Shown here in pieces: positions 223 to 51,700 of a stretch of DNA of 64,000 bases. Positions within the stretch are counted from its first letter, which is position 1, and every line of letters begins with the position of its first letter. The DNA is from an uncultured virus (IMG/VR IMGVR_UViG_3300007539_000017) (lineage: Duplodnaviria > Heunggongvirae > Uroviricota > Caudoviricetes). Position numbers and translations under genes: made by a program. The DNA lies in IMG/VR virus record IMGVR_UViG_3300007539_000017, one strand, 5' to 3'. A model generated the notes under the pieces. That model was not told the DNA's origin. It searched no databases and worked only from the letters and a program-made list of their open reading frames with translations.

Positions 223-828
223 ATGCAACAAGAAAGTCCATATGATATCAAAGATTTTATCTTTATTGATGTCGAAACAACAGGTGCAAACATACACGAT
301 AGTTCAAACTATCTGGATAAACACATAATTAAAAAGGATTTAACCCAGATTGGTCTGGCGTGGATGGAAGGGGAGAGGATACAATCGGCTTATACATACG
401 TAAAACCACCAGAAATATACTTTCAACATGTAGATAAATGGTGGAAAAGTGGTGGAAAAGTCAATAGTAATCCCGATTTGGTTGCGGCTGCTCCGACCTG
501 GGATGAATTATATCCATACATAATGGCGCAGATTGGTAACAAACTACCAGTTGCACACAACGCAAACTTTGACGCACAAGTTTTAAATGATACATCATTT
601 CATTATGGTCTTAGGTTTTTAGAGAGAGGTTTCTGGAAATGTACTTTTGAAGATAGTAGAAGTTTACTTAAAAGCTCTTTAGATAGTTATAGTTTAAAAA
701 GTGTTTGTAAGTTCTTTGATATTAATATTGGTAATCATCATGACGCTAGAGATGACGCTATTGCTTGTTTAAGAGTATTCGAAGCTTTACAAGGATTTAG
801 AGCTAGACCCGATTGGATTTTTGTTTAA
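223..828 (+). CDS. DEDDh 3'-5' exonuclease (DNA Pol III epsilon-like)
   Basis: FIDVETTG, VAHNANFD and HDARDDA motifs. Confidence 0.9.
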   Translation: MQQESPYDIKDFIFIDVETTGANIHDSSNYLDKHIIKKDLTQIGLAWMEGERIQSAYTYVKPPEIYFQHVDKWWKSGGKVNSNPDLVAAAPTWDELYPYIMAQIGNKLPVAHNANFDAQVLNDTSFHYGLRFLERGFWKCTFEDSRSLLKSSLDSYSLKSVCKFFDINIGNHHDARDDAIACLRVFEALQGFRARPDWIFV

Positions 829-1060
829 TTAAAATTCTTCTAGAGTTTTGTAGTACTCCACCCCATATTCCATATTCTTGTTCGTGTCTAACAAAAAAAT
901 CTAAACAATCTTCTATAACAGGACAAGTTCGGCAAATTGCTTTAGCTTTTCTAGTAGAAGCTCCTCTTTCTGGAAAAAATATATCTTGCTCTTGACTTAA
1001 ACACAACCCATCTTTGTACCAAGTTTCATTAATTAAATCTATTATCATCTGTCTAACCAA
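803..1060 (-). CDS. whiB: WhiB-family Fe-S transcription factor
   Basis: C...FFPERG...AKAICRTCPVIEDC...GIWGG. Confidence 0.92.
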   Translation of the reverse strand: MVRQMIIDLINETWYKDGLCLSQEQDIFFPERGASTRKAKAICRTCPVIEDCLDFFVRHEQEYGIWGGVLQNSRRILIKQKSNRV

Positions 1061-1404
1061 TCTCCACTTTCAACTTTAGGCATATGACCATATTCTTTTC
1101 TCGGTAAAAAATAAGCTTGTACTCCTTCTATACCTTCTAAATCTATATCTTCTCTTTTGTAAAACCTTGGATGTCCTTCAATAATATCACAAGACTTTAA
1201 TGTATCCCTATCAACTTCATAAACTTCACCTGTTACAACATTTTGTCCGTCTTTTAATAGGCCTGGGAAAGACCTTAGATTAATCATGTCATACTTAGGT
1301 TTAGTCTTATATTTACCTAGAAAGGTTGATGTAGCCATAATACTATGTCTTAAATGGCCACCTTCCTGTCTTAATGTCCCATAAACAAATAACTTTTTAT
1401 TCAT
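1045..1404 (-). CDS. Gamma-glutamylcyclotransferase (AIG2/GGCT-like)
   Basis: LFVYGTLR, GEVYEV, IEGHP..YKR; start moved to the ATG at 1404 (SD AAGGAG). Confidence 0.9.
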   Translation of the reverse strand: MNKKLFVYGTLRQEGGHLRHSIMATSTFLGKYKTKPKYDMINLRSFPGLLKDGQNVVTGEVYEVDRDTLKSCDIIEGHPRFYKREDIDLEGIEGVQAYFLPRKEYGHMPKVESGDWLDR

Positions 1405-1483
1405 TTTTCTCCTTACAGGCAACACAAATGGTACATACATTGCCTTCTATTTCTTCATTACAAATAATACAATAATGTTTCAT
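1397..1483 (-). CDS. 28-aa Cys-rich microprotein
   Basis: MKHYCIICNEEIEGNVCTICVACKEKNE; overlaps the GGCT start; below the ORF-track cutoff. Confidence 0.5.
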   Translation of the reverse strand: MKHYCIICNEEIEGNVCTICVACKEKNE

Positions 1484-1544: not shown

Positions 1545-1593
1545 AGACACATTGGTAACCTCGAGACTTTTTTTCTCTCCTAATGTGCCTTCG

Positions 1594-1670
1594 TGGACGT
1601 GGAGGGAATCGAACCCTCGTAAACTAATACTGTAACCAACACACTATTTAGTTCTATACCTATCACGCCC
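1594..1670 (-). ncRNA. tRNA-like RNA resembling the tmRNA tRNA-like domain, with no tag ORF
   Basis: Acceptor GGGCGTG/CACGTCC with G3:U70 and discriminator A; T arm GAGGG-TTCGATT-CCCTC; no D stem; long irregular helix in the anticodon position. Confidence 0.7.
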
Positions 1671-17392: not shown

Positions 17393-18511
17393 TTAGTCCT
17401 TTCCGAACAACTTCTGTTGTTCTATAATTAGTGCTTCTTGTGCTGTGATGTCTTCTTCATCCTCAACACTTCCAGTTATGAACCAGTCTTCACTAATGTC
17501 ATCTGCACTTTCTGGAATATAATATTTAGGGTCATCGACCTCAATATCAATTGCTTCCAAATGCTCGCCGTCTGTATAATTTACACAGTCGGCTCCACAA
17601 TCTGGCCAGTATTGGTTGACGTCCATCTCAGCATTGCACTTCTGACATTTAATCTTATTGTCACGTACATGCCATTGGAAGTCTTCCATCATGTCTTGTG
17701 GAGCATCATAACCATAAGCCACCATCATTTCCACAATCATGTCAGCACATTCTTCGTCTGACCATGCATCCTGTGGGATAAGACCCCATTGGTCGCATAA
17801 TTCAACATCGAATAGCTGAATAGTAGCTTCTGGTTCGTCACCAATTGTGCATGAAGCACCTTGGTCACGATTGACTGGCTTAGACTTAGCTGGTTCTGTT
17901 AGTTTATTGACGTAGGACTTAGTACCCCACTTCATCTTGGCTGAATACTCCAAGTATGAATCGTTTGAATACCAAACGCCATCTGACCACTCACCACTAG
18001 CCTCGTTGATAATGTAGGAATCTCTACGCAACTTAGGATTAGCTGTGAGAATGACTAGCTTGTTATAGCTACCAATCACATTACCCAAGTGGTCGATGTA
18101 CCTACTGTCATCAAGTGCAGTTAGTTTCTGGTACTGCAAGAACGTTTCATTAAAGTAACGAGTGTCACTTATGTCACGCTTTGCAGGTGGATGAAACTGA
18201 TGTGGCAATATACCGTTGTGTGCAAATACTGTTTGAGTATCTACATTGAACGGATGATTATTATCCATACATACTGAACCATGAGTTGCTATTCTCATGT
18301 GAACAAGTACGTCAGCATCATCACCATATTTGTCAATTACTTCGTTGAACTTACTAATAAATGGTTTAAGTTTCATAGTCTTAAAGACTCGAATCTTACC
18401 TTTATCATCAATCCAACTAATGCCACCACCATCACTATTATGTTTCCACATAGTTTCAAGTGTTGCATTGTCTATTTTTGCACCCTTAGGGATGCTTGCT
18501 ATTATACACAT
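17393..18511 (-). CDS. Class II (Ntn) glutamine amidotransferase with acidic C-terminal extension
   Basis: N-terminal MC, N.DG.G, HMRIATHG, HPF, HNG, SDT. Confidence 0.9.
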   Translation of the reverse strand: MCIIASIPKGAKIDNATLETMWKHNSDGGGISWIDDKGKIRVFKTMKLKPFISKFNEVIDKYGDDADVLVHMRIATHGSVCMDNNHPFNVDTQTVFAHNGILPHQFHPPAKRDISDTRYFNETFLQYQKLTALDDSRYIDHLGNVIGSYNKLVILTANPKLRRDSYIINEASGEWSDGVWYSNDSYLEYSAKMKWGTKSYVNKLTEPAKSKPVNRDQGASCTIGDEPEATIQLFDVELCDQWGLIPQDAWSDEECADMIVEMMVAYGYDAPQDMMEDFQWHVRDNKIKCQKCNAEMDVNQYWPDCGADCVNYTDGEHLEAIDIEVDDPKYYIPESADDISEDWFITGSVEDEEDITAQEALIIEQQKLFGKD

Positions 18512-21393
18512 TAGAGTGTACCTCCTTCTTCTGTTATTAATTCCAGAGTGTCAAGATGGTCAACGACCATTCCACGCTCTGTTGTATCAGCAAACAACCT
18601 ACTTAGGTCGTAGCTGTTTGTTTCTCTACCAAGCTTGATAAGGTTTTGGTATCTGTTTCTATTACCTTCTGTTGATAATATATAGAACCATAGCTTATCA
18701 TCCCAGTAGCTAACTGTCAAATCGTTGAAGAACTCACGATAAAAACCGTTTTGTTCTCCATCGGTTGTGTTGTAATATGGCAATTCAGAAGCAACTAAGT
18801 TCTTAGTCATTCTGTAAACTGCATCTACAAACTCAACTCTAGCTAGGACTCTGTCCTTGACAGTAGTAGAGTTGAAATATCTAAGCTCGATAGTATTCTC
18901 TTTAACTAAGTTAAAGCCATCATACTTACCATCGCCACCTCTATCAGTACGTCTACGTAAAGCAGTTGCTGCAATAATATCATTTGTATTACTGAGCACT
19001 CTGTTTCTACGCTCATGATATGGCATGCGCCAGTGAGCCCATCTATCTGAATGTCTCTGAGCAACTTTGTACAACAAAGTATTCTCAGATGCAACTTGAC
19101 CATCATTTATAAATACATCATGTTGTCTCATGAAGTAATCAATGAAAGCCCAAAGATGTCCAGTAGTAAATGCATCATGGTCAATATGTATATGAATACC
19201 ATTGCCAAAGTTTCTACCTCCACCTTCGTTGAACATTGCAACATATTTGTCTTTCAACAATTGCCAGAAGTCATCTGGTACTTGTTGCCATGCATCTAGG
19301 TTCATTGGTTGTGTAACAACCTCTTGACCCCAAGCAGAACCAGAGTCAACTGAACTATCTTTGACTCGGTATGCTAACTGAACGCGTGAGCGTTGTACTT
19401 CACTCCATGCTGGGTGAAAGAGCTCAATTAGTCTACGATGTGTATTTTCCATATCGTTTGCATCTTGATGCTCATTTCTTCTACCAACAATCTCTAACTC
19501 CATACCATAGAATGGACCCATCTCTGAGTTTATGATATGTGATTGAGTAATAGGACTTCCACTACTCATAGAGCGAGAAAATGTCATCGATTGTTGATTA
19601 GACATTAGCTCTGTGTTGGTCCAAGTAATTTGTCCAACAGGCTTAATCAATCTACCATCTGAATGTGTAGATGTACTAACCTGCCAAACAGGGAATGTAA
19701 AGTCCCAACTATTTTTCTCTAGATTCATCTCTGGTAATCCATGTCGAATTACATGTATAGGTGTTCTAGATACTCGTATCACTCTTCTGAGATTTGGTCT
19801 AGCTGACCCATTGTATCTTTGAGATAGATAATTCGAGAATTGACTCGCATCATATATCGTAAGGAACATGCTGTGGTCATATATGCTATTACCATCATCA
19901 TCTTGAGTAGCAAGGTCTTCATCAAAATACAGTGCGGTGTATCCTGTTGAACGTACTAGACCTTGTTCAAGGTCATCGGCATTCATATCCAATGTCTCTT
20001 CTCTAGTGAATAGTTGGAATCCACCATCTTGTAATATATCCCAAGCTTGTACTGACTCTGCTTCACCCATATCAGAATATGAATACCAGTCAAAGGTATT
20101 ACCGACATGGCCAATAGACTCATATGCACATTCATCAGGTCTAAAGATATCCTCTTCTGAAGCCCATGATAAATACTTCCTAGCTTCAAGACTAAGTTCC
20201 ACTGTTGGACCATAGTTGTTCTCTTCTAAGAAGTCACATGGATAGGCTGTCACGTCTTCCCATTGATAGGCAGATGAGTTTCTAGTTGTAGGAACTCTAC
20301 GCCAGAAAGGAACTAGTGTTTGATTATAAATCCAACCAGTTCTATCCCCATCTTCGTCCATCATGATTGAACGTAGGAATTGCCTTGTAGGTCTTTGCTC
20401 ACGACCGACACCGTAAGGGAATCTTACGAATGCATTGGTATGTGGGTCAAAGCCAGCAGTATATGTAGATGCACATAGAAAGCAGATTGAGTATCTGCTT
20501 GCATTGCGCTCCATGTTAATTGCAAACACAGTATTGTTTTTGTTAACATGTGACATACATATTTTGCATTCCTTATACTGTCTGAGACTACTACGAGTAC
20601 TAGGCTTGTAGATAACTTGTTCAAAGATGTCCCACTTGAACGTATCGTAGTAACCCCAGAATGGAGTAGCTTCTTCGTTCAATGAATAGGATATATTGTG
20701 ACTAATCTTAGTCACACCATCTTCAAAGTAAGGAATGATGTAAGACGTTGAGAAACATCTATCTACGCCATTCTCATCTTGAATGATTGTGAATATATAG
20801 TAGATATTACTCGCTGCTACATCTTGAGCATTTTGTCTGTAGTACTTATGTTTAATACTGTTATTAAACGGATTACTAAGAAACCTCTGCTGAAATTGCT
20901 TTTCAAGGCTTTCAGCTACTTTATACAAGTAATAAGGTTGCTCAACTATACCTGCGTTATTAAATGAACTAGCAGGAACCTGACGAGTTTCGTTCATGTT
21001 AGCAAAAGCATTAGCTAATCTATGAATCTCGTCATGTTCATGATGAACAGTCCTACCCAATAGTGGAGTAGGGTCTTCATTTTCTGCACGACTTTTAATA
21101 CAACTACACATAGTAAGCATACGTTGTATGTTCTTATGTGATACGATATAGATTTTAGACTCAGACCAAAGGCCGTAGTCTATAACGTCTGTATCAGTTC
21201 TTTCACTATAAGGAACCCTATAGTCTGCTACTTCGTGTAAGTGCTGGTTTCTCAACCTGTCATACAGATAATCCCAGTTAATATCAGCATCGGTAATGTT
21301 ACCTCTGTTGTGATATGTGGTTTCATCATGTAATGAGAACAAAGTTGGAAACTGTTCTTTTACTTCTGTAATGGAATTAAGTGTCCAAAACAT
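18511..21393 (-). CDS. Large putative amidoligase (~620-aa N-terminal extension plus C-terminal ligase domain)
   Basis: YGMELEI, KDSSV, EVVTQP, GIHIHI, NTIELRYFNSTT; CxxC...CxxC in the extension. Confidence 0.83.
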   Translation of the reverse strand: MFWTLNSITEVKEQFPTLFSLHDETTYHNRGNITDADINWDYLYDRLRNQHLHEVADYRVPYSERTDTDVIDYGLWSESKIYIVSHKNIQRMLTMCSCIKSRAENEDPTPLLGRTVHHEHDEIHRLANAFANMNETRQVPASSFNNAGIVEQPYYLYKVAESLEKQFQQRFLSNPFNNSIKHKYYRQNAQDVAASNIYYIFTIIQDENGVDRCFSTSYIIPYFEDGVTKISHNISYSLNEEATPFWGYYDTFKWDIFEQVIYKPSTRSSLRQYKECKICMSHVNKNNTVFAINMERNASRYSICFLCASTYTAGFDPHTNAFVRFPYGVGREQRPTRQFLRSIMMDEDGDRTGWIYNQTLVPFWRRVPTTRNSSAYQWEDVTAYPCDFLEENNYGPTVELSLEARKYLSWASEEDIFRPDECAYESIGHVGNTFDWYSYSDMGEAESVQAWDILQDGGFQLFTREETLDMNADDLEQGLVRSTGYTALYFDEDLATQDDDGNSIYDHSMFLTIYDASQFSNYLSQRYNGSARPNLRRVIRVSRTPIHVIRHGLPEMNLEKNSWDFTFPVWQVSTSTHSDGRLIKPVGQITWTNTELMSNQQSMTFSRSMSSGSPITQSHIINSEMGPFYGMELEIVGRRNEHQDANDMENTHRRLIELFHPAWSEVQRSRVQLAYRVKDSSVDSGSAWGQEVVTQPMNLDAWQQVPDDFWQLLKDKYVAMFNEGGGRNFGNGIHIHIDHDAFTTGHLWAFIDYFMRQHDVFINDGQVASENTLLYKVAQRHSDRWAHWRMPYHERRNRVLSNTNDIIAATALRRRTDRGGDGKYDGFNLVKENTIELRYFNSTTVKDRVLARVEFVDAVYRMTKNLVASELPYYNTTDGEQNGFYREFFNDLTVSYWDDKLWFYILSTEGNRNRYQNLIKLGRETNSYDLSRLFADTTERGMVVDHLDTLELITEEGGTL

Positions 21394-25675: not shown

Positions 25676-25975
25676 ATGGAAAAATATGACTTACATAGTG
25701 ACTTAGATGATGTTATGTCTGTACCTGGGTTTTATAAGAAAGCTGCTTGTAAAGGACATGATAATCAAGATGATTTCTTTCCAGAGCGAGGAGGTTCTAC
25801 TATTGTTGCTAAGGCTATTTGTGGAAAATGCCCTGTTCAAAAAGAATGTTTGGAATATGCTGTAGAGCGAAAAGAACGTTTTGGAATTTGGGGAGGTAAA
25901 TCAGAAAGAGAAAGACGCGCCATTAGACGAGAAAGACGCCTTAAGGCAAATCGTCCTCGTCCAAATGGTAAATAG
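25676..25975 (+). CDS. whiB: WhiB-family transcription factor (second copy)
   Basis: AAC...FFPERG...AKAICGKCPVQKECLEYA....RFGIWGG.SERERR. Confidence 0.95.
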   Translation: MEKYDLHSDLDDVMSVPGFYKKAACKGHDNQDDFFPERGGSTIVAKAICGKCPVQKECLEYAVERKERFGIWGGKSERERRAIRRERRLKANRPRPNGK

Positions 25976-26301: not shown

Positions 26302-27483
26302 ATGAGTAGTAGTAAAGACTTTATAAAAATAAAGTTAAATACATTAGGGGTAAGAACATTACCTCATCCATTCGCTAAAGACATACAAGAAATTTATTGT
26401 TATGTTCAGGCTCAATCGTTAAAGGAAATAGATATCCCTAACGACCCAAATCCAAGAGACCCAATTACAGATAAGAAATCATTTGATGAATTGTCTGAAA
26501 TTGTTGCACAAGCTGATACACACCCAGATATGTTTGGGTATGCTGCAATTGGATTACACATTTATGCAAGTGAAGCTGAATTAGATAATAAAACAGGTGA
26601 ACTTACATTAAGTCTATCTAAATCAAAAACAACTAGAGATGGTCTTGTAAATGGTAATCACTTATTAAAAGCAATTCAAGATGCAGATGAAGTTCCAGAG
26701 GACAGATTTGTTAGAGCATTTATTATGACAAAAGTTCCAGAACTTAAAAAACTTGACATATCAGTTGGGTTGAATTCATCTAATGAAGTATCCAAAGAAT
26801 CTATTTGGAACTATCAAGGTAAACTTGATTGGATTAAAAAATCTCTTAAAAATACTGAGTGGGAAGATTTAGTTGTTTATCACCAAGGTGACACAGGTAA
26901 TTTTCCAGTAAGAGATATTCTTACAACTCTATATACATTGAGAATTGATGGAACTGAAATGAAATTCAAACCTGAAATAGATACTGTTGGTTATGGTCGT
27001 AAACATACAGTTATGAGCATATATGATAACGATGAGAATATTGATTTATTTTCTGTTAGAGATAAAGATTTAGCGAAAATCTTAAAATTTCAAGACTATA
27101 TGCAATTTACTGCTGAAAAGCTTTGGAAAGAAGCTGGTGGTGATGAAGAGACATATATGTTTAAAACATATTCTGCAGCAAAATGTCCTAGCAATCCTAC
27201 AGAAGGAAAGCCAGACCGAATGTTACAAAATGGTGTATTAGTGCCATTGTTAGCAGCCTTTAGAGCTTTAATAGCTTTTGATGGAAAGTTTGATTACCAT
27301 AAAGCAAAAACTATTTGGGATTCTATTGGTGCAGAGTTAATGTTAGAACCACACATGACAGCAAACAATTATGGTGAGCTAAGACCTGTTGGTTATGACA
27401 AAACTTTCTGGATGAACTCTTTTATGAAAGTTCTAAAAGAAGCAAAAATGCAATATCCAAAGTACAAAAAAAAGAGTGCTTAA
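26302..27483 (+). CDS. AIPR-family protein (ParB-like fold), putative
   Basis: NPRD, G..I.A, GLVNGNH, ISVGLNSSN pattern; stand-alone unit with its own SD and terminator. Confidence 0.6.
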   Translation: MSSSKDFIKIKLNTLGVRTLPHPFAKDIQEIYCYVQAQSLKEIDIPNDPNPRDPITDKKSFDELSEIVAQADTHPDMFGYAAIGLHIYASEAELDNKTGELTLSLSKSKTTRDGLVNGNHLLKAIQDADEVPEDRFVRAFIMTKVPELKKLDISVGLNSSNEVSKESIWNYQGKLDWIKKSLKNTEWEDLVVYHQGDTGNFPVRDILTTLYTLRIDGTEMKFKPEIDTVGYGRKHTVMSIYDNDENIDLFSVRDKDLAKILKFQDYMQFTAEKLWKEAGGDEETYMFKTYSAAKCPSNPTEGKPDRMLQNGVLVPLLAAFRALIAFDGKFDYHKAKTIWDSIGAELMLEPHMTANNYGELRPVGYDKTFWMNSFMKVLKEAKMQYPKYKKKSA

Positions 27484-38072: not shown

Positions 38073-38423
38073 ATGGCAGGTCAACTACATAAAAGATTAT
38101 TTAGAGACACTATAAACGTTCAAAGAATTTCAGAGACTACTGTTGATGAACGTGGAATAGAAAGTCAGTCATGGCAATCTCATTTAAATGGGGTTACTTG
38201 TAAAATAGATTCAGCTGGTACAACAGAAGCCAAAGGAGACAGAAATACAGTACTTGAAAATTTTACAATTTACTTTCATGGAAATGTAGACGTAAAAGCA
38301 AATGATAGATTTCAGAGCTCTTCTGATTCAAATATTTATTATGAGATTGATTCTATAAGAAAATCTAAAAACAGGTCAGGAAATATAATTGGTGTAGTAG
38401 CTTCAGCACACTTATTTGACTAA
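38073..38423 (+). CDS. Head closure / head-tail adaptor
   Basis: DERG....W, DV...DR, YEI; synteny. Confidence 0.75.
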   Translation: MAGQLHKRLFRDTINVQRISETTVDERGIESQSWQSHLNGVTCKIDSAGTTEAKGDRNTVLENFTIYFHGNVDVKANDRFQSSSDSNIYYEIDSIRKSKNRSGNIIGVVASAHLFD

Positions 38424-41400
38424 TGGCTATTCCAAGACCTGCGTTATTTGCAGGACCTGGAAGAGTAGGTTTATTTAAATCTCTTAAAAATCTTAGAGGT
38501 TCCGAATTAAGATACGCAATAGGTTACAACATGTCTACGTTGCGTATGCTTGGTGTTCCATTGGCTGGTTTGGTTTCTTTACCTTATGATATACAACAAA
38601 CAATGAACACATTTAAAAGGTTTAGTAAAACTGCAACAACTGGTTCATTAATGCCATCAGCTCAACGTATTGGTGTTTTATCTTATGCTAAAAATATTGT
38701 TCCAAAAGCAAGAGGAGCACTACCTAAAACAAATATAGGAGCTATTGATAGATATACAAGTTTATATTTTGGTAGACAATCCAGACAAGTTATAAAACAA
38801 ATTAACAGAGGTGCAGGTAAGAAAGCTGCACTTAAAGCATTTTTTAATCCAGAAGTCGTTGATAGAGAAACACAAAAGCAAGCTAGAAGACCAACTCAAC
38901 AGAACATGTTACACAACTGGCAAATGGCTACTTATATGAGAGCTATTACTGGAGCTCCTGACCCAATAAGAAATAATGCATTTATGCAAGCTAAACAATA
39001 CATGGCAAGAAGTAAAAATTCTAGACAAATTACTCCATTTACTTTAAATGCAAGACAAGGAATTGTAGATTCAAAAAATGAACACATAATGATGGCTAAT
39101 GAAAGATTTGAACAAATAATGGGTGGGTTAGAAGTAGGAGCATTTACTAATCCTGAAGCACATATAAAAAGTGTAATGGATAACCAAATGATGAACTACA
39201 TGTTAGAAACAATAGATAAAGACTCTGCTCATTTAAGAACTAATCTTTCTAAACAAGCTAGAGCAGCTCATAAGGCAAGAAGAACTAATACAGTACAGGC
39301 ATATTATGCACAGTCTGGTATAGACAGAGCTGATGGAGTTGGAAATAGATATAATTTGAGCCAAGATAGTTACAGAATTAATGAAATAAGAAATCCTTAT
39401 AATGGTATGCTAGCTGGTTATTCTACAGATGACCTTGAGACTTTTGCAAATAAAAATATACACACTGGGTTAAAAGAAGCTATCAATACTGAGCCTAGGC
39501 TTAAGCAAGCAATGCAAGGAGGTATGAATGACCCTACTTTTGCAGGATTGGTAAACAATTTAGCAGTAGAACTTGGATTTAGCTCTCAAACAGTAGGTAA
39601 TAATACACCAGGTGCAACTATTGACCAACTACTTATGTCTCTAAGTAATCTTGGTATTACTATGAGTTTAGACACAACAGATTTTGCAAAAGCTGCAAGA
39701 AATGCAACTTTAAACTTTAACACTCAAGTAAAAAGTATTGTCAATTTTACAAGAGAAGTAAATAAATTAGGAATGACAAGTTTGTCAGATGCATTAACAA
39801 AAATGATAGTTTCTCAAGAAGGATTAAAAGAATTAGGACAAACAGGAGCTTTAGAAGCTTTAGAGTTTTCACTTACTGCTGGTAATTTAGATTCAGATTT
39901 AAGGTCTGTAACTGGTGGTTTAGGTGAAGCATTTTTCCAAAACAAAAATTTAATAGAAGGAGATTTAATAAAGGTAAGACAAGCTGCGAATAATGAGCTT
40001 GTAGAACATTTGAGAGGTGGTGGAGGTATGGTAAATACTAAAACTGGAACAAAGTTAGGAAACTATTTTTATAGTCCTCACATGAAATCAGGAGGTATGG
40101 GAGTAGTAGAATCAGCATTACATTTTTATTACGATGACGAAAGAGATATTAATAAACAAAGATATTATAGAAGTTACCAATCTTTGCGATATGCGGAAAA
40201 TAAAAGAAGAGCTCTTACAGCTGCTAAAAAAGGTAACAGTACTGTTATTAATGGAGAAAGATATATAACTCAAGGTGGTAAAGCTTACAAAATTCAAAAT
40301 ATTAAAGAACATATAAAAATTGATGCAGGTGATGGAACTATAAGAAGTATAAACTTAATAGATGGCAGTTTACAAAGTGCTATTAAAAGAAAAGTAGAAA
40401 ATTTAAGAAAAATTATTAACGACCCTAGAGTAGAAGCTTCTTACGGTAGGGGAATACAATCTTTAAAATATGAGTTAGCAATGTTAACCCATATAGAATC
40501 TGAACTTGTCAAAGGTGCTATGTCTATGAAGTTTAATGGAATGGGTAATAATAAAAAAACCGTTAACATTCAAAAAATTAATGCTCACTCAAAAATGATT
40601 GAAGCTGAAGGATTAAAAATGAAAGTAGGTACTAGTAAACATGGTGATATAACAGGAAATTTTAGTGCTCATAGAGTTCTACAGTCTAGACCAGATAAAG
40701 GACATGAATTTGCTACTGCCTTAATGGAAGGTTCACAAATACCAAACGAACTTACAGGTTGGAATAGGTCAGGCAATGCATTTCAAGGTGGAGTTACTGT
40801 TAGTAACGAAGCCCAAAGAAGAAGTGAAAACAGAAGAACAAGAAAACCTGGTGAAGACAATTTCATACCTAATAAATTAGATATTGCTAAATCTATACAT
40901 ATTATTCCTTTAAACAGCAAGGAAGCTAGAAAAGGTCCAGGTATGCTTGCAGCAGCAGTTGTAGCTGGTACTTCTGATGCTAAAAGAAATGTAAAAGCAG
41001 ATGCTGTTAGAGATATAGTGGCGCTTGAATATGGTGGACCAGCTACAGATTCTAGTGGTGGATATTCTAGAAGAACAGATGGCATGTTTTATTTACCTTC
41101 TTATTTCTTTACAAGAGCTGCTATAGAGTCAGCTGCTTATTTAGGTTTAGACCCTGGAAATGTAGTAAAAAATAATGAAAAATCATTAGGTAGAAGTATG
41201 ACAATGTATCTTAAAGATACTGACCCAAATCGTAAAAGAGCAAGAATGGATGCTCGTCAAACTGATAGAGGATTAAAAGAGATTAGAAAAGGACAAAAGA
41301 ATTTAAGACGTGCTCAAAATGCTTTTATTGCTGCTCAAAGAAAATTTGCTAGACGTTCTCAAGATGAAGTTATGAGAGCTATGAATAGAAGAAGTATGAA

Positions 41401-43435
41401 AGCATTTCAAACAATGGAAGGAAAGGCTGATGGTATGGTTGGTAATGATAGGTTTATTGACCCTAATTCTTTACTGATGGAATCTCAGGATAGATTTTTA
41501 GCTGAAGGTTTAGCAGGAATGGGTGCTAGAGAATTTAATATGACCTCTTTAGGTATAGTTAAAAGACAAATAGGACAAGCTGGCATAGGTGGTGGATTTG
41601 TTATGAGTAAATCTACTGGGAAAATGACAGAAATTACTCCTGCTCAACATACAAGCGTATATGAAGTAGAAGGTCAAAGTATAGTTGGAAGACTTCCTTA
41701 TATGCCAGTGTTTGATGCACAGATATATAAAAGATTATTAAGAACAAATAGTGATGAAGCTAGAAGATATTTAAGTAATACTAGAACTAGAATTGGTAAA
41801 TTTCAACCTGAATATACACAAGCAGTAGGAGATTTATTAAATAACTCTAAATTTATGATGCAAGGTTTGTTAGGAGTTAATCAGTTTCAAACATTAAAAA
41901 ATATGATTGGAACTAGAGCCTCTGAAGTTAGAAAAGGATTGGCTAATGCAATTGGTTTGAATAGGATAGAAATACCTAATTACCAAACAATGATAGGTTT
42001 ACCACAAGGACCTAATTCAGAAATTGGAATGATTAGAGAAGCACTTTCTGGCGGTAGAGCTAAAAGTAATTTAACAACTTTATATTTATCAGAAATGGAA
42101 AAAGCTTTAAAAGATGTTATGAAAATGTTACCAGAAAGTGAAAGAGCTATAATTCAGCAAAAGGTTAGATATATTGCTGCAAGTACTGCAAGTAAAGTAG
42201 GTAATGCAATACAAACCGTTTGGTCAAGATTATCTGCTGGAGGTTCTTTTGATACTCCAGGAAATATGATGAATGCATTAGAAAGAACTTCAATTCTTTT
42301 AGAGCAAGGGTTTGCAGCTACTACTGATACTACAGGTTTATTAAAAGCAGCATTCGACATGGCAAGAACCCATCAAGATAAATTAAAAGTAGCACAAAGT
42401 TTATTAGATGTTAATAAATCAAGATTTATTATTAATAATATGAATACAAATAGAATTATTGAAAAAGTAATAGATTCAGATGTAGTTATACAAATTGGTG
42501 AAGAAGGATTACAAGATGTTATTCAACAAGCTATTGAAGAAGACGATAGAATTGCACAACGTGAATTAGATGATGATTTTGTTGGTAACACTGTAAATAA
42601 GGTAAATTACAAATCTGACAATATTAAAGTAGAAAAAGGTGTAGTGAGTATAACTTCTGGTGCAGACATGGACGAAGTTATAAAAGAAATGAAAGAAATT
42701 ATTTTTGAAGATGATGCTGCATATCAAGGAACACAAGAAATAGCTAGACAACTATCTTACAAGTTTAGTTTTAGTACCAGAGAAGGTATCTATGCTGAAA
42801 AACTTATGGCGTATTATGAAAGAAAAGGAAAAACACCACATCTTGACAATATTGGCTCTATTGATGGTAGAAGTAGAGATGGTTCTGGTGTCCACGTACA
42901 CGATGCTAGAAAAGTTTCTCCTAGTGAAAAATTTAAAAACAAACAAGGTAAGCTACCTGAAGATGTTGTTAATTTTTCATCATTTACAAACAATGCAATA
43001 TCAGAAATATTAACTCCTGAAAATTTAGCTAAAGATTTTTTTGATAAAGACTTACATTTATTTGTGGACCCTGAAGACTCTTTGTACGATAACTTTAAAC
43101 AAACAAGATTAAGAACTGGTCATACTGGTCTTGGTGCAATTGAATATTCTAAATTTGAAGGTGTAATAGGTGCATATTTCCAAAAAGTTGGATATGAAGA
43201 TGCTAAAAGATTTATATTATCTTTAGTAAATGAAGCAAGAAAAGGTAAAGGTGGTTCAGTTCAACAAAACAAAAAAGTATTTATTGAAAAGTTTCTTACT
43301 CATCCTGGAGTTGGATTACATTTACTTGAAGCAGAGCTTAATGGTAGAAAAGGTTTAGATACTTCAAATAACTCAATTCGAGATATATTTTACTATTATA
43401 AAAATAAAGCAAATAGACAACTACGGAGCTATTAA
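38423..43435 (+). CDS. 1670-aa protein at the HK97 gp10-like position
   Basis: Lies between head closure and tail terminator; internal ALEYGG...LPSYFFTRAA resembles the gp10 motif. Confidence 0.55.
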   Translation: MAIPRPALFAGPGRVGLFKSLKNLRGSELRYAIGYNMSTLRMLGVPLAGLVSLPYDIQQTMNTFKRFSKTATTGSLMPSAQRIGVLSYAKNIVPKARGALPKTNIGAIDRYTSLYFGRQSRQVIKQINRGAGKKAALKAFFNPEVVDRETQKQARRPTQQNMLHNWQMATYMRAITGAPDPIRNNAFMQAKQYMARSKNSRQITPFTLNARQGIVDSKNEHIMMANERFEQIMGGLEVGAFTNPEAHIKSVMDNQMMNYMLETIDKDSAHLRTNLSKQARAAHKARRTNTVQAYYAQSGIDRADGVGNRYNLSQDSYRINEIRNPYNGMLAGYSTDDLETFANKNIHTGLKEAINTEPRLKQAMQGGMNDPTFAGLVNNLAVELGFSSQTVGNNTPGATIDQLLMSLSNLGITMSLDTTDFAKAARNATLNFNTQVKSIVNFTREVNKLGMTSLSDALTKMIVSQEGLKELGQTGALEALEFSLTAGNLDSDLRSVTGGLGEAFFQNKNLIEGDLIKVRQAANNELVEHLRGGGGMVNTKTGTKLGNYFYSPHMKSGGMGVVESALHFYYDDERDINKQRYYRSYQSLRYAENKRRALTAAKKGNSTVINGERYITQGGKAYKIQNIKEHIKIDAGDGTIRSINLIDGSLQSAIKRKVENLRKIINDPRVEASYGRGIQSLKYELAMLTHIESELVKGAMSMKFNGMGNNKKTVNIQKINAHSKMIEAEGLKMKVGTSKHGDITGNFSAHRVLQSRPDKGHEFATALMEGSQIPNELTGWNRSGNAFQGGVTVSNEAQRRSENRRTRKPGEDNFIPNKLDIAKSIHIIPLNSKEARKGPGMLAAAVVAGTSDAKRNVKADAVRDIVALEYGGPATDSSGGYSRRTDGMFYLPSYFFTRAAIESAAYLGLDPGNVVKNNEKSLGRSMTMYLKDTDPNRKRARMDARQTDRGLKEIRKGQKNLRRAQNAFIAAQRKFARRSQDEVMRAMNRRSMKAFQTMEGKADGMVGNDRFIDPNSLLMESQDRFLAEGLAGMGAREFNMTSLGIVKRQIGQAGIGGGFVMSKSTGKMTEITPAQHTSVYEVEGQSIVGRLPYMPVFDAQIYKRLLRTNSDEARRYLSNTRTRIGKFQPEYTQAVGDLLNNSKFMMQGLLGVNQFQTLKNMIGTRASEVRKGLANAIGLNRIEIPNYQTMIGLPQGPNSEIGMIREALSGGRAKSNLTTLYLSEMEKALKDVMKMLPESERAIIQQKVRYIAASTASKVGNAIQTVWSRLSAGGSFDTPGNMMNALERTSILLEQGFAATTDTTGLLKAAFDMARTHQDKLKVAQSLLDVNKSRFIINNMNTNRIIEKVIDSDVVIQIGEEGLQDVIQQAIEEDDRIAQRELDDDFVGNTVNKVNYKSDNIKVEKGVVSITSGADMDEVIKEMKEIIFEDDAAYQGTQEIARQLSYKFSFSTREGIYAEKLMAYYERKGKTPHLDNIGSIDGRSRDGSGVHVHDARKVSPSEKFKNKQGKLPEDVVNFSSFTNNAISEILTPENLAKDFFDKDLHLFVDPEDSLYDNFKQTRLRTGHTGLGAIEYSKFEGVIGAYFQKVGYEDAKRFILSLVNEARKGKGGSVQQNKKVFIEKFLTHPGVGLHLLEAELNGRKGLDTSNNSIRDIFYYYKNKANRQLRSY

Positions 43436-45725: not shown

Positions 45726-48700
45726 ATGGCCAGAAATAGCGTTACAGCATACTCTCTTGAAGCTAGAATAGTAATGGGCTTTGACGATAAAACGTTAAAG
45801 CAAGCCAACCAACAGATAAAAAGAGAAGCTGCAAGAATACAACAATCCACAGCTGCTGTATCTAATACATTAAGAGGATTAATGTCTGCATCAGGTGCAG
45901 CTTTTGGTGCTGTTGCTGGTGGTATGACTATAGCTGCCGCTACTGCATCTAGATTTGAAGAATCTTTTGTAGCTGTTAAGAAAACATTAAATATTGGTCC
46001 AGAAGTAAAAGATGTTGATAAAGCATTCAAACAAATTGCAGATTCATTAATAACACTTTCAAAAATATCTCCAGTCACTACTAGAGAATTAAATGAGATT
46101 GCAGCTGTTGGTGGTCAGTTAGGTGTAAGTGCAAAAGATATTGTTTCTTTTACTAAAGTAATACAGAAATTAACAGTAGCCACAAACTTAGGTGCAGAAC
46201 AAGCTGCACTATCAATGGCTAGACTTCAAGAAATAACAGGAAGTTCAGTAGATGAATTAGATAACTTAGGTGCAACATTAGTTGACTTAGGTAACAACTT
46301 TGCTGCAACTGAATCTGAAATTGTAAATGCAGCTATGCAAATTGCTACAGCTACTGCACAGATATCAGGAACTTTAAATAATGCTGCTGTAGATGCTTTA
46401 GCTTTTTCAACTGCTTTAAGAGCTATTGGTCAGCCAGCACAAGCAGGTGCAACTGCAATAGTTAGGTTAATGAATGAGGCTAGTACTGCAGTAGAATTAG
46501 GTGGAAGTAAATTAGAAATATTCGCAGCAACTGCTGGAGTTTCTATGAAAGAATTCGTAGATTTATTCGCTGTTGATTCTACAAAAGCAATTGCTTTATT
46601 TATTAAAGGATTAGACGACACATCAAAAGTTGGTAAGACAAGTTTAGAAATATTATCTGAATTAGGACTAGGACAAGTCAGAAGTAGAAAAGCAATACTT
46701 GCTTTATCTAAAGCTAACAATACATTATTTGATGCTATAGATACTGCTAATAGAGCTTTCATAGAAAACAATGCACTTAACTTAGAAGCAGAAAGAAGAT
46801 ATGATACTTTAGCTTCACAAATAGCAAGATTAAAAAATATTACTTCAGCAGGATTTTTAAATTTAGCACAAGATACTGGAAGTTTAGAGACAGCTAAAGC
46901 TTTAGTTGAAGAAATATCAAATATTACATATTTAATTATGGATAATTTTGAAAAAATAAGTTTTACTGTTGCTAAAGTATTAGGACCTCTTTTAGCTATA
47001 TCAACAGTATTTAAACAAATGAATTCGAATGTAAGAGATATGGCTGTTGCTTTAAGAGTATTTGAAAATGCATCAGAAAGTATTAATGCTTTAAATAGTG
47101 TCGCTGCTCAGAGAGGTGTTCCTACAGGTAAATCATTTGAATCAAGTGTTTTATATGACGAAAAAACTGGTGCAGGATTTGGAATGAGAGGGCTTCAAGG
47201 TTCTAGAATATCAATGATGGATAAAGTTATGGCTATGCCTGGAATGGGATTACTTAATATGTTTGGATTCACAGGTGGTAAAAGAAGAAGACAAGAAAAT
47301 TTAGCAAGACAACAATATTTTAGAAATAGGCCAATAGCAGACGCATTCATGCAAGGTATTGACCCATTCTCAATACAAGCAAAAGCTCCACAAACTTTAG
47401 ATGAATTTTTATCTCCATTTGATAAGGATACTGGTAAAGGTGGTGGAAACATAATGTCTAGACTACTAAGAGATTTATCAGCAGGAACTATTACAAAAGA
47501 AATGTTTGATGAAATAACTACTCAAGTAGTAGAAAATGTATCAGACATTTACAATGAAGCAGGCGAAATTATATCTCAAGGTTCAATTACAACTATGCGA
47601 ACTGAAAAAGATATGATTCAACAATACAGAAATAAGATTGCATCTGGAGAAATTATAGAAGGCCAAACAGAAATGGCAGAAAATGCTTTAGAGTTTAATA
47701 GAAAACTAGGTGCTTTAAATTATCAAAATTTAACTTTATTCGATAAGTTTATATATTCAATACAAAGACAATTATCTGGTAATGCTGAATTGTTTGGAAA
47801 ACTAAGAACACTTATGCTAAAAGCACAATTAGCAATGTTTAGAACATTGTCAGGAATTCCAACAGAAGCAATCGGAATGGCAAAGAAATTATCTTTTATA
47901 GGACCGATGAGGAACATAAGGGGCATGATGCCGAAACAATTACCTCAACTACCTTCAGGGCAATACGCTGGTGCAACAGACTTCAAAATTCCAAGATTAC
48001 AAAAACTTTTGGATATGTTATTTTCCGCCAGAAATATGCGTCAACTACCTGGCACAAGACAATTACAATTATCAAGCAGACAATCATTCGGACAATTACC
48101 TGCAAGAGCAGGCTCTAGAGCTTTAGCAACTATTCCAGGAGTAACTGGAACAAGGGGACTAGAAGCTACTTACCCTGCAGCAATTATACTATTTACTAAA
48201 TTTGAAAAAATATTACGCGCTTTAAATGCGCAAGTAGCAAGACTACTAATTCCACTCAAAGCATTTGGTTCTGCAATGAAGGATATATTCCAAACTTTAA
48301 TTGCTTCCATGAGAGGACAGTTTGCATCTTTAGCAGAACGTCCAATGTCAAGAAGAGAAGAGTTAGTTAGAAGACTTGCTAGACAAAGAGATAGAGTTAC
48401 ACAATCAGCTACTAGAGGTCCTGGTATTGCCGATATAAGAGCTGAAGCTGCAAGAAATATTGCAAGAAGAGCACGTATTAGACAAATAAAGGAAAATAGA
48501 GCAGTTATTGAAGACGCTAAGCGTCAAATGAGAATTGACAAAATTCTTAATAGAAGAAGAAAGATGATACGTGATGCCAATTACTTTGAAAGTACTAAAG
48601 GCGATGGAACTCTCTTTGAAGCAAGTAGAAAATATCCTAGAGGAACACAAATACCATCAGCAGGTGGAGGTAGGTTACAAAAACTACGTTTTGACCCTGA

Positions 48701-51700
48701 AGCTGGAAATGTTTATGGAGCTGATAGGTTTGGAACTTATGGTCCTCAACCTCCTAATGCAATAATAAGAATGCAACAAAGAGTTAATAAAGCATATGCT
48801 GCATTATCAGATGCAATTATGTTACAAACTGTAAAACTTTCTAATGTATTAAATGCTGCAGCAGCAAGAGTAGGAGCAGCATTCATTAATCTAGGTGGTG
48901 CATTTGCTGGTATAGGATTTATTCTTAAAAACCTAAAGAGTTTAATACAATTCGCAAGAAGTAACTTCCAATTTGATTTTGCAAAAATGGGTAGGTCATT
49001 TATACAGAATATGGCTTTGCGTGCTCCTAAAGCATTACCTTCAGGAAGAGTGCCTAAAGCTTTACCTGCACCAAAACCTAGAATTCCAGTAACAGCACAT
49101 GGTAAAAAACCATTTGGACAATTACCAGCTTCTACTGGAGCACAAGATGTTCTTAGAGTTGAACCATCACGAACTGCTGCAATGCGTGCAAAATTATTAG
49201 AAAAACAACGTTTAATTATTGAAAGATTAAATAAAGTTGAAGCTAGAGGAGCAGTTATTAAAAAAGTTAAAGCTGCTGCTGAAAAAGTTGAAACAAAAGT
49301 AAAAGCTACAAGTGTTACAGTTACTGAAGCTGCTGAAAAGGTTGAAAAGAAAACTTTAGCTAATAAATTTAAAGAATTTGCTGCTAGAAAAGCAAACGCT
49401 GCTGCTCTAAGAATAGAAGAAAGAGCTCAGGCTAAACTTAATAGAACAAAAGCTAAAGAAGCTTTACCTAAGTTAGGTGACCTTAAGAGACAACTAAGAG
49501 ATTTACAAACTGCTGCTGGCCCAGTAAGTAAAAGAAGCGCTACTAAACAATTAGATGAGTTCCTTGATGGATTATATGGAAAAGGTAATAAGAGCTTTAC
49601 TAGAGGTAGAAGAAAATTAATACTAAGAGGATTAGATTCTGAAGTAGCAGCAATGGTAGAAAAATCTAGACAGTTAGCTTCTACTGGTGGATTTGAAACT
49701 ATGAAATTCAGAGGTAAAGATGTTAAAGTTACAGCAGATTTAGCTAAGAATTTTGATAAAGCAACAGTAGCTGGTGCAAAGTTTGTAGGAATATTTAAAG
49801 GCATATTTAAGTTTGGAGGTATGGCTTTACTTGTAATGCGTGTAATTGCTCCACTAATAAAGATGATTGCTAGAGCAGGTGCAGAAGCAAAAGGATTAGA
49901 AGAATATAAAAACTCATTAAGAGAAATTACTAACGAATTCCAAGAGCTTCAATCTAATACAGTCAAGCTAGCTGAAGCTCGAAAACTTTTAGCAAAAGAA
50001 CAAAATGTATTTTCACCTGATGGAAAAACTACAATTGCTGAGACTTTAGAAGAATATGTAAAAGAGCAAGAGAAAGCATTAGCTAAACAAAATAAAAATA
50101 TTTCTGAGCAATTAGGTAAAGCATTTTTAGATGGAATGCTACTTGTTGAAAATCAAGTTGATGAAGGAGCATTAGCAAAAAACTACTTCAAACTACTTGA
50201 AAAAGTAACTGGTGATACAGAACAACAAATAAAAGATAGAATAGCTGTTCCAGTTGGAGAAGCTATTAGAGGCATATTTGAAATGGGTGAAATACCTACA
50301 TTCCAAAATATATTTGATGAATTACTCTTCTCTGAAGATATTGATGGAACTTATTTATCATCTTACTTTAAAGGTACAAGTAGAGAAATAATTGATGCAA
50401 TGATTGGAGATGATAATCCATTTAATGTATTCCAAGACTTATATACAGAAGCAATGGCAGATATGGATTTGAACTCATTTGGACTTGCTTCTGCCGATAT
50501 AGGTACAGGACTCTTTAATGTATTAGATAAATACACTGCATTTACACAAATAAAAGGTGATGAACTAGCTGCAAGAATAGGACAAGGTAATTTATTCCAA
50601 GGATTAAATGAACAACTAATAGCAAATATTGGTGGTTCAGATTTTCTTGAGCATGAATTAAATCAAGTATTTACAAGTTTAGCAGATGCATTCAGAGTAA
50701 AAATGCCAGATGCTACTGACACTGAAGTTGGTAAGGCAATATTAGACTTCTTAGTTTTCATGGAAACATTTAACAATCTTGCTGGTAAGAGTATTTCTGA
50801 TATTGCAGATACATTAGAAATGCTACCTGAAGACTCTGATGCAATGGGTGCATTGAGAGATATGTTAGAAATTTATTTAGACGAAATGACAACTGCAGGT
50901 TATTTAACTGAAAGAGAAGTTTTAGCAGCTGGCGATAGTACAACTAAGATGTTACAGCTTTACAAGAATGCTCAATTAGCAATATCTAATGAAATAACAG
51001 ACGCTAACAAAAAGATGCAAGACGAATTTGGCATAACAGCCGAAATGTCATTAAGACTTGCAATTAAAGCTAAAGAGGCTTTCAAACAAATAAGAGAAGC
51101 TGCTACTGCACTAGGAAAACCATTAGAAGACGCAGAATTAACAGATGTATCATTCGGTAAACTTTTAAATAATTTACAAGATAACAGAAAAGCTATAGAA
51201 GCGTATGAAAAAGATATTGCACAATTAAGAGCAAAAGGATTTGAATTTACAGCAGATAGATTACTACAAATGGGTCTAGGTGGTAGAGATATAGCGGCTA
51301 GAGCTTTAGAAGACCCAATGGCTGCACAGGCTTTAGAGTTTGAATTAATTAAAACTGCTCCTGCAACTGCTTCTGATGTAGGTGTTAAGTCTCCATTAAT
51401 GGATGATGCCTATATGGACCAAATGAACAACTTGGGTATTCAGATAACAGAAAGCTTTGTAAAAGGTATAGAAGATGGATTCCCAATTATAAGACAAATG
51501 TTTGGAGAAATGGGTGAAGAGGTTGTAGCCGCACTTAGAGAAGCACTTGGATTCGGTTCACCATCTAAAGTTATGATTCAATTTGGTAACTGGACAAGTG
51601 GTGGATTTGCACAAGGTATAAAAGAAGGAATACCAAAAACTGAATTAGCTATGCAGGATATGGCTAAAAATAGTGCGGAAGCATTTAGAGCAATACTAGG

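Follow-up and report, generated by a model that had tools for sequence, protein, structure and literature searches.

A candidate phage gene for a mini-tmRNA consisting of the tRNA-like domain with a capped P2 stub

Results

Genome setting of the element

The stretch analysed here, 64,000 nucleotides of an uncultured virus genome and hereafter called the window, belongs to a tailed phage, with genes for terminase, portal, protease, capsid and a tape measure protein of 2737 aa (45726-53939, plus strand). Eighty-six ORFs of the window were scanned for known families, 30 with PHROGs and 59 with Pfam, three of them with both; neither an integrase nor SmpB was found among them in Pfam or PHROGs. Two WhiB-family genes are present (803-1060, minus strand, E 2.5e-20; 25676-25975, plus strand, E 3.2e-21). 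According to PMC10202952, WhiB occurs exclusively in Actinobacteriota and is a marker of actinophages, so that an actinobacterial host is indicated. The relatives of the capsid protein, all at 35% identity or less and from mixed hosts, were of no help in naming this host, and a megablast of 8 kb of the window against cultured phages gave no match. The stretch is present in public sequencing runs labelled aquatic, freshwater or salt-marsh.

The feature under study, a putative mini-tmRNA gene (a tmRNA reduced to its tRNA-like domain, TLD), occupies positions 1594-1670 on the minus strand. It sits in a replication/recombination module, downstream of the gene for a Rad52/Erf-like annealing protein and of a small ORF. 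About 55 nt upstream of the element, at 1727-1795 on the minus strand, a strong hairpin (-30.5 kcal/mol, z -5.39) followed by ACAUUUUU has the appearance of a terminator for this small ORF, and a terminator scan selected its inner part. No sigma-70-like site was found upstream of the element on the minus strand by a promoter scan that omits the actinobacterial promoter types. The next gene downstream (1045-1440, minus strand) encodes a GGACT/AIG2-like gamma-glutamyl cyclotransferase (Pfam PF06094, E 1.1e-21).

Some other genes of the window deserve mention in their own right. A GATase_4 class-II glutamine amidotransferase-like gene (17393-18511, minus strand) is followed in the coordinates by a gene for a 960-aa protein with an Amidoligase_2 domain (18511-21393, minus strand). 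The trio of GATase_4, Amidoligase_2 and GGACT/AIG2-like proteins has reportedly been predicted by comparative genomics to make or remove gamma-glutamyl-type peptide modifications. An ORF at 26302-27483 (plus strand) gave a weak match to the AIPR abortive-infection family (25.3 bits for a cut-off of 25), and a protein of 1670 aa without any PHROG or Pfam family is encoded at 38423-43435 (plus strand).

Sequence and fold of the element

The element is 77 nt long, from G1 (1670) to the discriminator A (1594), and its minus-strand letters are identical to those given in an earlier note on this DNA. The minimum-free-energy fold has an energy of -27.5 kcal/mol (z -3.64), and 2 of 200 shuffled sequences were equally stable. 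In this fold, the 5' strand GGGCGUG (1664-1670, G3 at 1668) and the 3' strand CACGUCC (U70 at 1597; 1594-1601 when the discriminator A is included) form a 7-bp acceptor stem containing the pair G3:U70, which is also evident from the sequence and from the variant alignment described below. Together with A73, G3:U70 makes up the alanine identity set. The D arm is replaced by nine unpaired bases starting at A8, AUAGGUAUA (1655-1663), which include a GG doublet. Positions 17-50 of the element (1621-1654) then form one long irregular hairpin, a P2-like helix capped by a short loop, which takes the place of the mRNA-like domain and of the pseudoknots. No more than 34 nt separate the D loop from the linker, and this hairpin takes up all of them. 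The linker leads into the T arm GAGGG-UUCGAUU-CCCUC (1602-1618), with a stem of 5 bp and the loop UUCGAUU.

The alignment with the tmRNA consensus follows the same architecture: the D-loop analogue AUAGGUAUA aligns with GAucuGGaUUCGAC of the consensus and the T arm with GGGUUCGAuUCCC. The stemless D loop with its GG doublet, the purine at position 8 and the tmRNA-type T arm are therefore all present. The junction with P2 is near to the tmRNA consensus without being equal to it, reading GGUAUAGAAC...UUUAC in the window, GGAUAGAC...GUAAC in the relatives and GGaUUCGAC...GGAC in the consensus. The three bases after the discriminator A are CGA, so CCA is not encoded, as the earlier note had already stated. 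The fold likewise reproduced the G3:U70 pair, the discriminator A, the A8, the stemless D loop, the long irregular P2-like helix and the canonical T arm that had been recognised there by eye; the linker, which had been read as 3 nt, is 2 nt long in the fold.

Searches with tmRNA and tRNA models

When permissive thresholds were set, the tmRNA model of Rfam (RF00023) aligned with the element from end to end, covering model positions 1-374 with about 290 internal positions deleted. The score of 39.3 bits lies below the gathering cut-off of 47, with E-values of 3.6e-14 in a search of 701 bases and 3.3e-12 over the whole window. On the element, tmRNA beat four overlapping matches of the tRNA/tmRNA clan, which were left out by Rfam clan competition, and it was also the top family in 5/5 other variants tested (35.9-42.1 bits). 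The proposal that the element is an alanine-type tmRNA tRNA-like domain thus agrees with the best Rfam family for the element and for its variants. Compared to a full tmRNA, the resume codon, the tag reading frame with its stop codon and the pseudoknots are missing; with some 290 model positions gone and a short variable loop closing the helix, P2 is simply capped, as had been claimed. When the element was compared by BLAST to 50,697 cultured-phage records, the top partial matches were the 3' ends of annotated phage tmRNA genes, and no record covered 80% of the element. No match to the Rfam mt-tmRNA family was listed for the element at permissive thresholds.

A two-piece (permuted) tmRNA was considered and rejected. 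The two halves of the element are in standard order, the helix is closed by a loop, and the separate coding piece that the earlier note had asked about was found neither by ARAGORN nor by Rfam in the 64-kb window. The Rfam model of two-piece tmRNA (RF04321) gave only 14.9 bits over part of the element region, and no second tmRNA-type match was present across the window at E up to 0.5.

Standard annotation does not see the element. At curated cut-offs, Rfam had no match in the window, and ARAGORN with default settings reported no tRNA and no tmRNA in the 64 kb. When relaxed, ARAGORN called a tRNA-Val(UAC) in bacterial mode with a lowered threshold and a tRNA-Gln in mitochondrial mode, two weak and conflicting calls. 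Neither ARAGORN nor the Rfam cut-off reports the element, and this constitutes an annotation gap.

These relaxed calls would suit an aberrant decoding tRNA devoid of a D arm, as in some mitochondria, and with the tRNA model of Rfam a close relative (L068) scored 29.5 bits, which is right at the cut-off. The two calls disagree, however, on the anticodon, ARAGORN is silent by default, the hairpin loops of 3-6 nt are not conserved between variants, and tmRNA outscores the overlapping clan matches; we give this reading practically no credence. A decoding function is contradicted by the lack of a 7-nt anticodon loop, by the variation of the hairpin loops and by the silence of ARAGORN at default settings. 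The normal cloverleaf tRNA which the earlier note had held up against its own reading was not found either, with 0 ARAGORN genes by default and only the weak, contradictory relaxed calls.

Conservation of the element

Relatives of the element were collected by pattern searches. An exact 27-mer retrieved 4 viral contigs, a first degenerate pattern retrieved the identical 4, and a slightly looser one gave 47 metagenome loci and 3 genome loci. A covariance model (R1), made from eight 80-nt copies, was then run on 55 sources. It scored at least 49 bits in 28 of them, namely the window (53.1 bits), the 4 viral loci and 23 of the 47 metagenome loci, and at most 27.5 bits on the remaining matches, including the genome loci. 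Several metagenome contigs are the same records as viral contigs, so that the fair count is 13 distinct sequences. These variants come from aquatic viral and metagenome contigs and are 77, 80 or 94 nt long. On three of the contigs the family model also gave a weak second match (L021:265-313, L024:297-345 and L056:297-345, plus strand; 16.9 bits, GC 0.63), about 1.2 kb from the element and on the opposite strand. The nearest virus record (G001) had no tmRNA match; the whole region of the element is absent there, which makes this record uninformative.

Each of the 13 variants folded alone into the same architecture. In the model-fitted alignment, 99.7% of the paired cells were filled by pairs, compared to 47-53% when partners were slid by one to three columns. 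Changes on both sides were seen in 12 of 26 pairs, mostly in the hairpin (11/14), once in the T stem (1/5; the compensatory change is in variant L017) and never in the acceptor stem (0/7). The covariation values were matched by 0/500 shuffles. An alignment fitted to a structure is biased in favour of it, yet the separate folds and the slid controls argue against an artefact. The hairpin loops, of 3-6 nt, vary in size and sequence among the variants.

The acceptor stem behaves differently: its 7/7 pairs, G3:U70 among them, and A73 are letter-identical in 13/13 variants. The borders of the element are sharp, the flanks of the copies being unrelated and unalignable, and the adjacent GGACT proteins are just 41-53% identical between the main lineages. 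An invariant acceptor beside such diverged neighbours indicates strong purifying selection on the sequence and not merely on the shape. Altogether, these results demonstrate that the element is a real, selected RNA gene.

Downstream of the element, a GGACT homologue is present in 8 of the 13 variant types and absent in 5. In the wider class described below, 0/113 nearest ORFs among the matches listed encode a GGACT protein; we interpret its presence as lineage synteny and not as a functional link. The GGACT protein was accordingly rejected as a working partner of the RNA, and no recurrent partner was seen in that class.

The end of the upstream ORF coincides, in several relatives, with the first base of the element or lies within a few bases of it, with another gene on that strand 125 nt further downstream. 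The simplest reading of the ORF ending at the element is co-transcription followed by tRNA-type processing. Such an arrangement, together with the position of a member of the wider class between prohead protease and capsid genes in some high-GC contigs, could also be that of a punctuation signal, in which the fold is just an RNase P/RNase Z cleavage site that splits the flanking mRNAs and the released RNA has no role. But cleavage needs a shape and not a sequence, whereas the acceptor is letter-identical in 13/13 variants from lineages whose proteins are about 45% identical, and the GG of the D loop has been preserved too, as has the T loop of tmRNA type. We therefore regard punctuation as very improbable.

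Phages and islands often integrate at the 3' end of ssrA and carry that end with them. The element could then be a dead remnant, either an ssrA fragment left by faulty prophage excision or the attP core for a host tmRNA gene, and ssrA fragments in prophages are indeed mentioned in PMC9004378. Against this, both ends of the domain are present, and the helix between them shows compensatory changes. The element lies in a replication/recombination module, and no integrase was found among the 86 window ORFs scanned. A search for the family pattern in a representative prokaryote collection of 185,579 species gave 3 matches and 0 members, a result which, with so narrow a pattern, does not prove absence. 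Taken together, these observations make a dead remnant barely credible.

A wider class in viruses

A loose pattern was also used, which fixed GGG at the 5' end, the D-loop GG, the AC linker and UCCA at the 3' end, with 30-60 nt between, as well as the first and last pairs of the T stem and UUCGANU in the T loop. It matched at least 119 viral loci. The 4 free acceptor pairs and 3 free T-stem pairs were all formed in 89 of the 119 matches listed, for a chance level of about 0.1% by our own arithmetic (seven independent pairs at about 0.375 each). Among these 89 well-formed elements, 85 have a single middle hairpin. The matches listed are 69 to 94 nt long, and the GC content of their loci ranges from 0.30 to 0.71. 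Among the well-formed elements listed are 75 distinct sequences, whose free pairs in acceptor and T stem show many Watson-Crick forms. In 71 of these 75, A73 is followed by C, and the three bases following A73 are CCA in 22, CUA in 20, CAA in 10 and CGA in 3. Thus 55/75 read C-N-A, and the tail is CCA-like even where CCA is not encoded.

An ARAGORN call overlapped only 5 of the 89 well-formed elements listed (2 tmRNA, 2 tRNA-Ala and 1 tRNA-Cys), and there was none for the other 84. The first 20 well-formed loci were submitted to Rfam. A global tmRNA alignment was obtained in 8, in 5 of them over the cut-off; the rest gave a partial tmRNA-type match (4), a tRNA match at 29.5 bits (1) or nothing at E up to 0.01 (7). 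These mixed outcomes show that the class is heterogeneous and that the curated model recognises only some of its members as tmRNA. R1 matched 87 of the first 100 class loci at E up to 0.001, a figure that is not independent of the pattern.

As to the surroundings, the 113 nearest ORFs in the wider class, among the matches listed, revealed no recurrent neighbour gene. Other tRNA genes were found in the examined flanks of 23 of the 89 well-formed elements listed, often a tRNA-Met gene 2-190 nt away, as in the low-GC viral contigs L186, L206, L212, L226, L231, L232, L234, L257, L284 and L297. The high-GC contigs L184, L185, L215 and L223 carry a mini-tmRNA in an odd place for a tRNA-like gene, between the prohead protease and major capsid genes; in L204 and L238, also of high GC, only the prohead protease was seen beside it. 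In the lineage of the window, the mini-tmRNA is the sole tRNA-like gene of the phage.

Two longer tmRNA genes were also observed in phages. Cellulophaga phage phi40:1 (L062:269-630) has an unannotated full-length one-piece tmRNA (87.6 bits), and Stenotrophomonas phage vB_Sm_QDWS359 (L063:570-864) a permuted two-piece tmRNA (108.7 bits) beneath an annotated 'hypothetical protein'.

Presence in RNA libraries

Contigs from the RNA-library run X10 span positions 1580-2238 of the window, including the element, with zero differences. Coverage in run X9 was restricted to 1000-1532, plus a 35-nt match from a different member of the class, and runs X18 and X19 were without coverage of the element; uncovered stretches are uninformative. 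Since these contigs show no ends, strand or level and may derive from DNA, they are weak evidence of expression. The different class member in X9 is a 151-nt contig placed on window positions 1586-1620. It matches only the T arm and the acceptor, with 3 differences, and runs on into a hairpin resembling those of L092 and L163, two class members. Its sequence thus points to a different mini-tmRNA in an RNA library.

Discussion

Proposed action of the mini-tmRNA

We think it probable that the element is a phage gene for a tmRNA cut down to its tRNA-like domain with a capped P2 stub, and that its RNA competes with host tmRNA and lowers tagging. The RNA would be excised from a longer transcript by the tRNA enzymes of the host, RNase P at the 5' end and an endonuclease or exonucleases at the 3' end, and CCA would be added by the host CCA-adding enzyme; as CCA is not encoded, activity would depend on this host maturation. 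Host AlaRS would charge the RNA with alanine, and the RNA would bind host SmpB and EF-Tu. In the absence of a resume codon and of a tag frame, trans-translation cannot be finished by a mini-tmRNA. It would thus be a competitor of host tmRNA for both SmpB and stalled ribosomes, and the tagging of stalled products would fall during infection. In the wider class, the tRNA genes near 23 of the 89 well-formed elements listed provide a translation-linked setting in line with such a role. The alanine marks are strictly conserved, a hint that charging is important, which would favour an action on the ribosome over pure sequestration. Two points call for caution. At the P2 junction, the reported site of SmpB binding, the sequence deviates from that of the tmRNA consensus, so that SmpB binding is not assured. 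Moreover, blocked ribosome rescue could also harm phage translation, which counts against competition.

The experimental basis for such competition comes from a related molecule. Table 2 of PMC4131195 names a 'Mycobacterium phage DS6A (TLD only)' tmRNA, and the same source, citing Mao et al. 2009, states that a DS6A-TLD-like molecule is a strong inhibitor of tmRNA irrespective of chargeability, with titration of SmpB as a possible cause. According to PMC11915505, expression of the DS6A form in E. coli results in inhibition of the endogenous tmRNA. The molecule of the cited experiment is thus a different one from the window element, studied in E. coli. The earlier note had put forward three roles, namely an SmpB sponge, tag-free rescue and a decoy, and only the first of these has published backing, for a similar molecule.

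The same structural evidence also fits a productive rescuer, in which the alanine-charged mini-tmRNA and SmpB accept the nascent chain, and drop-off or a host release factor frees the ribosome. The phage would benefit if its proteins made from broken mRNAs were released without a degradation tag. The strictness of G3:U70 and A73 in 13/13 variants fits a need for charging, whereas a pure SmpB sponge needs none, inhibition by the DS6A-like molecule being independent of chargeability (PMC4131195). In addition, tmRNAs without a coding sequence (CDS) are kept together with SmpB in jakobid mitochondria, where they are thought to aid with incomplete mRNAs (PMC11915505). On the other hand, the ribosome is offered no stop codon, so that an additional step would be required for release, and no gene for a release factor, an ArfB-like protein or a peptidyl-tRNA hydrolase was found among the window ORFs scanned. 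The sole experiment cited in these sources shows inhibition and not rescue. We consider productive rescue unlikely, and hold the release of untagged phage proteins as its outcome to be equally unlikely.

An action off the ribosome was also considered, in which the RNA would be a decoy or binder that soaks up a host nuclease or defence protein (for instance RNase R or tRNA-targeting toxins), or the RNA cofactor of a phage protein. A class with GC contents from 0.30 to 0.71 and, among the matches listed, no recurrent neighbour is what a universal host target would lead one to expect, and tRNA and tmRNA fragments bound by a phage anti-CRISPR protein are reported to bind RNase R (PMC11662646). No such partner is indicated in the window, however, and the conserved positions are those recognised by AlaRS, EF-Tu and the ribosome, not a nuclease target loop. 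The anticodon loop, which is the usual target of tRNA toxins, is absent. A decoy role is in our opinion quite unlikely, and competition with host tmRNA remains the reading that we prefer.

Beyond the window, the TLD-only form of tmRNA is evidently common in phages. A search of the full-text literature, which leaves most subscription journals outside, found no paper calling such RNAs widespread in phages. It is tempting to generalise further, and we do so only tentatively: tag-less mini-tmRNAs may be among the commonest small RNAs of phages, a general device for taking over or silencing trans-translation which arose repeatedly by loss of the message domain and was kept alanine-chargeable because it acts on the ribosome and is not just an SmpB sponge.

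Bacteria rescue stalled ribosomes mainly by trans-translation, a path that is being explored as an antibiotic target. If phages use a compact RNA against this path or in place of it, such an RNA would reveal to what extent rescue can be prevented or separated from tagging. The 13 variants, in which the alanine-type acceptor is invariant while the stub covaries freely, amount to a natural experiment that marks the bases that matter. The principle is not new, as one phage example with an inhibition experiment is already in print; more useful than the gene itself, which is ordinary for its kind, are the findings that the class is broad and that standard annotation misses it.

Comparison with known systems

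The element shares with bacterial one-piece tmRNA (RF00023) the D-loop GG, the AC linker, the T arm and the acceptor. The bacterial molecule differs in having about 290 more model positions and in its consensus P2 junction (GGaUUCGAC...GGAC). In common with tRNA-Ala, the element has G3:U70 and A73, a T arm and an expected maturation by tRNA enzymes; unlike the element, which ARAGORN skips by default, tRNA-Ala has a D stem, an anticodon stem-loop and a variable loop.

CDS-less tmRNAs are described from jakobid mitochondria and, as genes of about 65 bp, from Mallomonadaceae plastids (PMC11915505). Like the element, these organellar RNAs are reduced to the tRNA-like domain, have no tag frame and are still conserved. 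They are reported there to co-occur with a nucleus-encoded SmpB, whereas the viral element would act on the system of its host. The precedent of a mitochondrial tag-less form, invoked in the earlier note, is thus borne out by this source; the direct phage precedent, DS6A, had been missed.

Two actinobacterial phages carry elements of the same kind, both unannotated in their records, which repeats the annotation gap seen for the window element. In Microbacterium phage Vitas (MN183281 39269-39356; L061:540-627), a TLD-only tmRNA-like gene aligned globally with RF00023 at 31.5 bits. Its architecture, G3:U70, A73 and actinobacterial host are as in the window, and the linker with the T stem, ACGAGGG...CCCUC, is identical. 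It differs in being GC-rich, in an encoded CCA and in the T loop UUCGACU, and it heads a tRNA cluster, directly upstream of tRNA-Asn, tRNA-Gln and tRNA-Lys.

The element of phage DS6A was pinpointed at JN698994 28478-28560. Like the window element, it is phage-borne, belongs to a phage of an actinobacterial host, is about 80 nt long, has a 7-bp acceptor with G3:U70 and A73 as well as a stemless D loop with GG, shares the T loop UUCGAUU and has a single capped helix where a full tmRNA has the mRNA-like domain. Neither of the two encodes CCA, the DS6A discriminator being followed by CUA, and both give a global Rfam tmRNA alignment just below the cut-off (43.2 bits for DS6A, 39.3 bits here). The two elements differ in GC content (0.69 in DS6A, 0.44 in the window) and in acceptor, D loop and helix, and no sequence relationship is detectable beyond the generic domain; the DS6A element lies beside a DNA polymerase III gene, without a GGACT neighbour, in a phage with an integrase. 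Inhibition of tmRNA is reported for this kind of molecule, to which the window element is assigned from its sequence and fold: a complete tRNA-like domain with a capped P2, under about 100 nt in all and without a tag frame.
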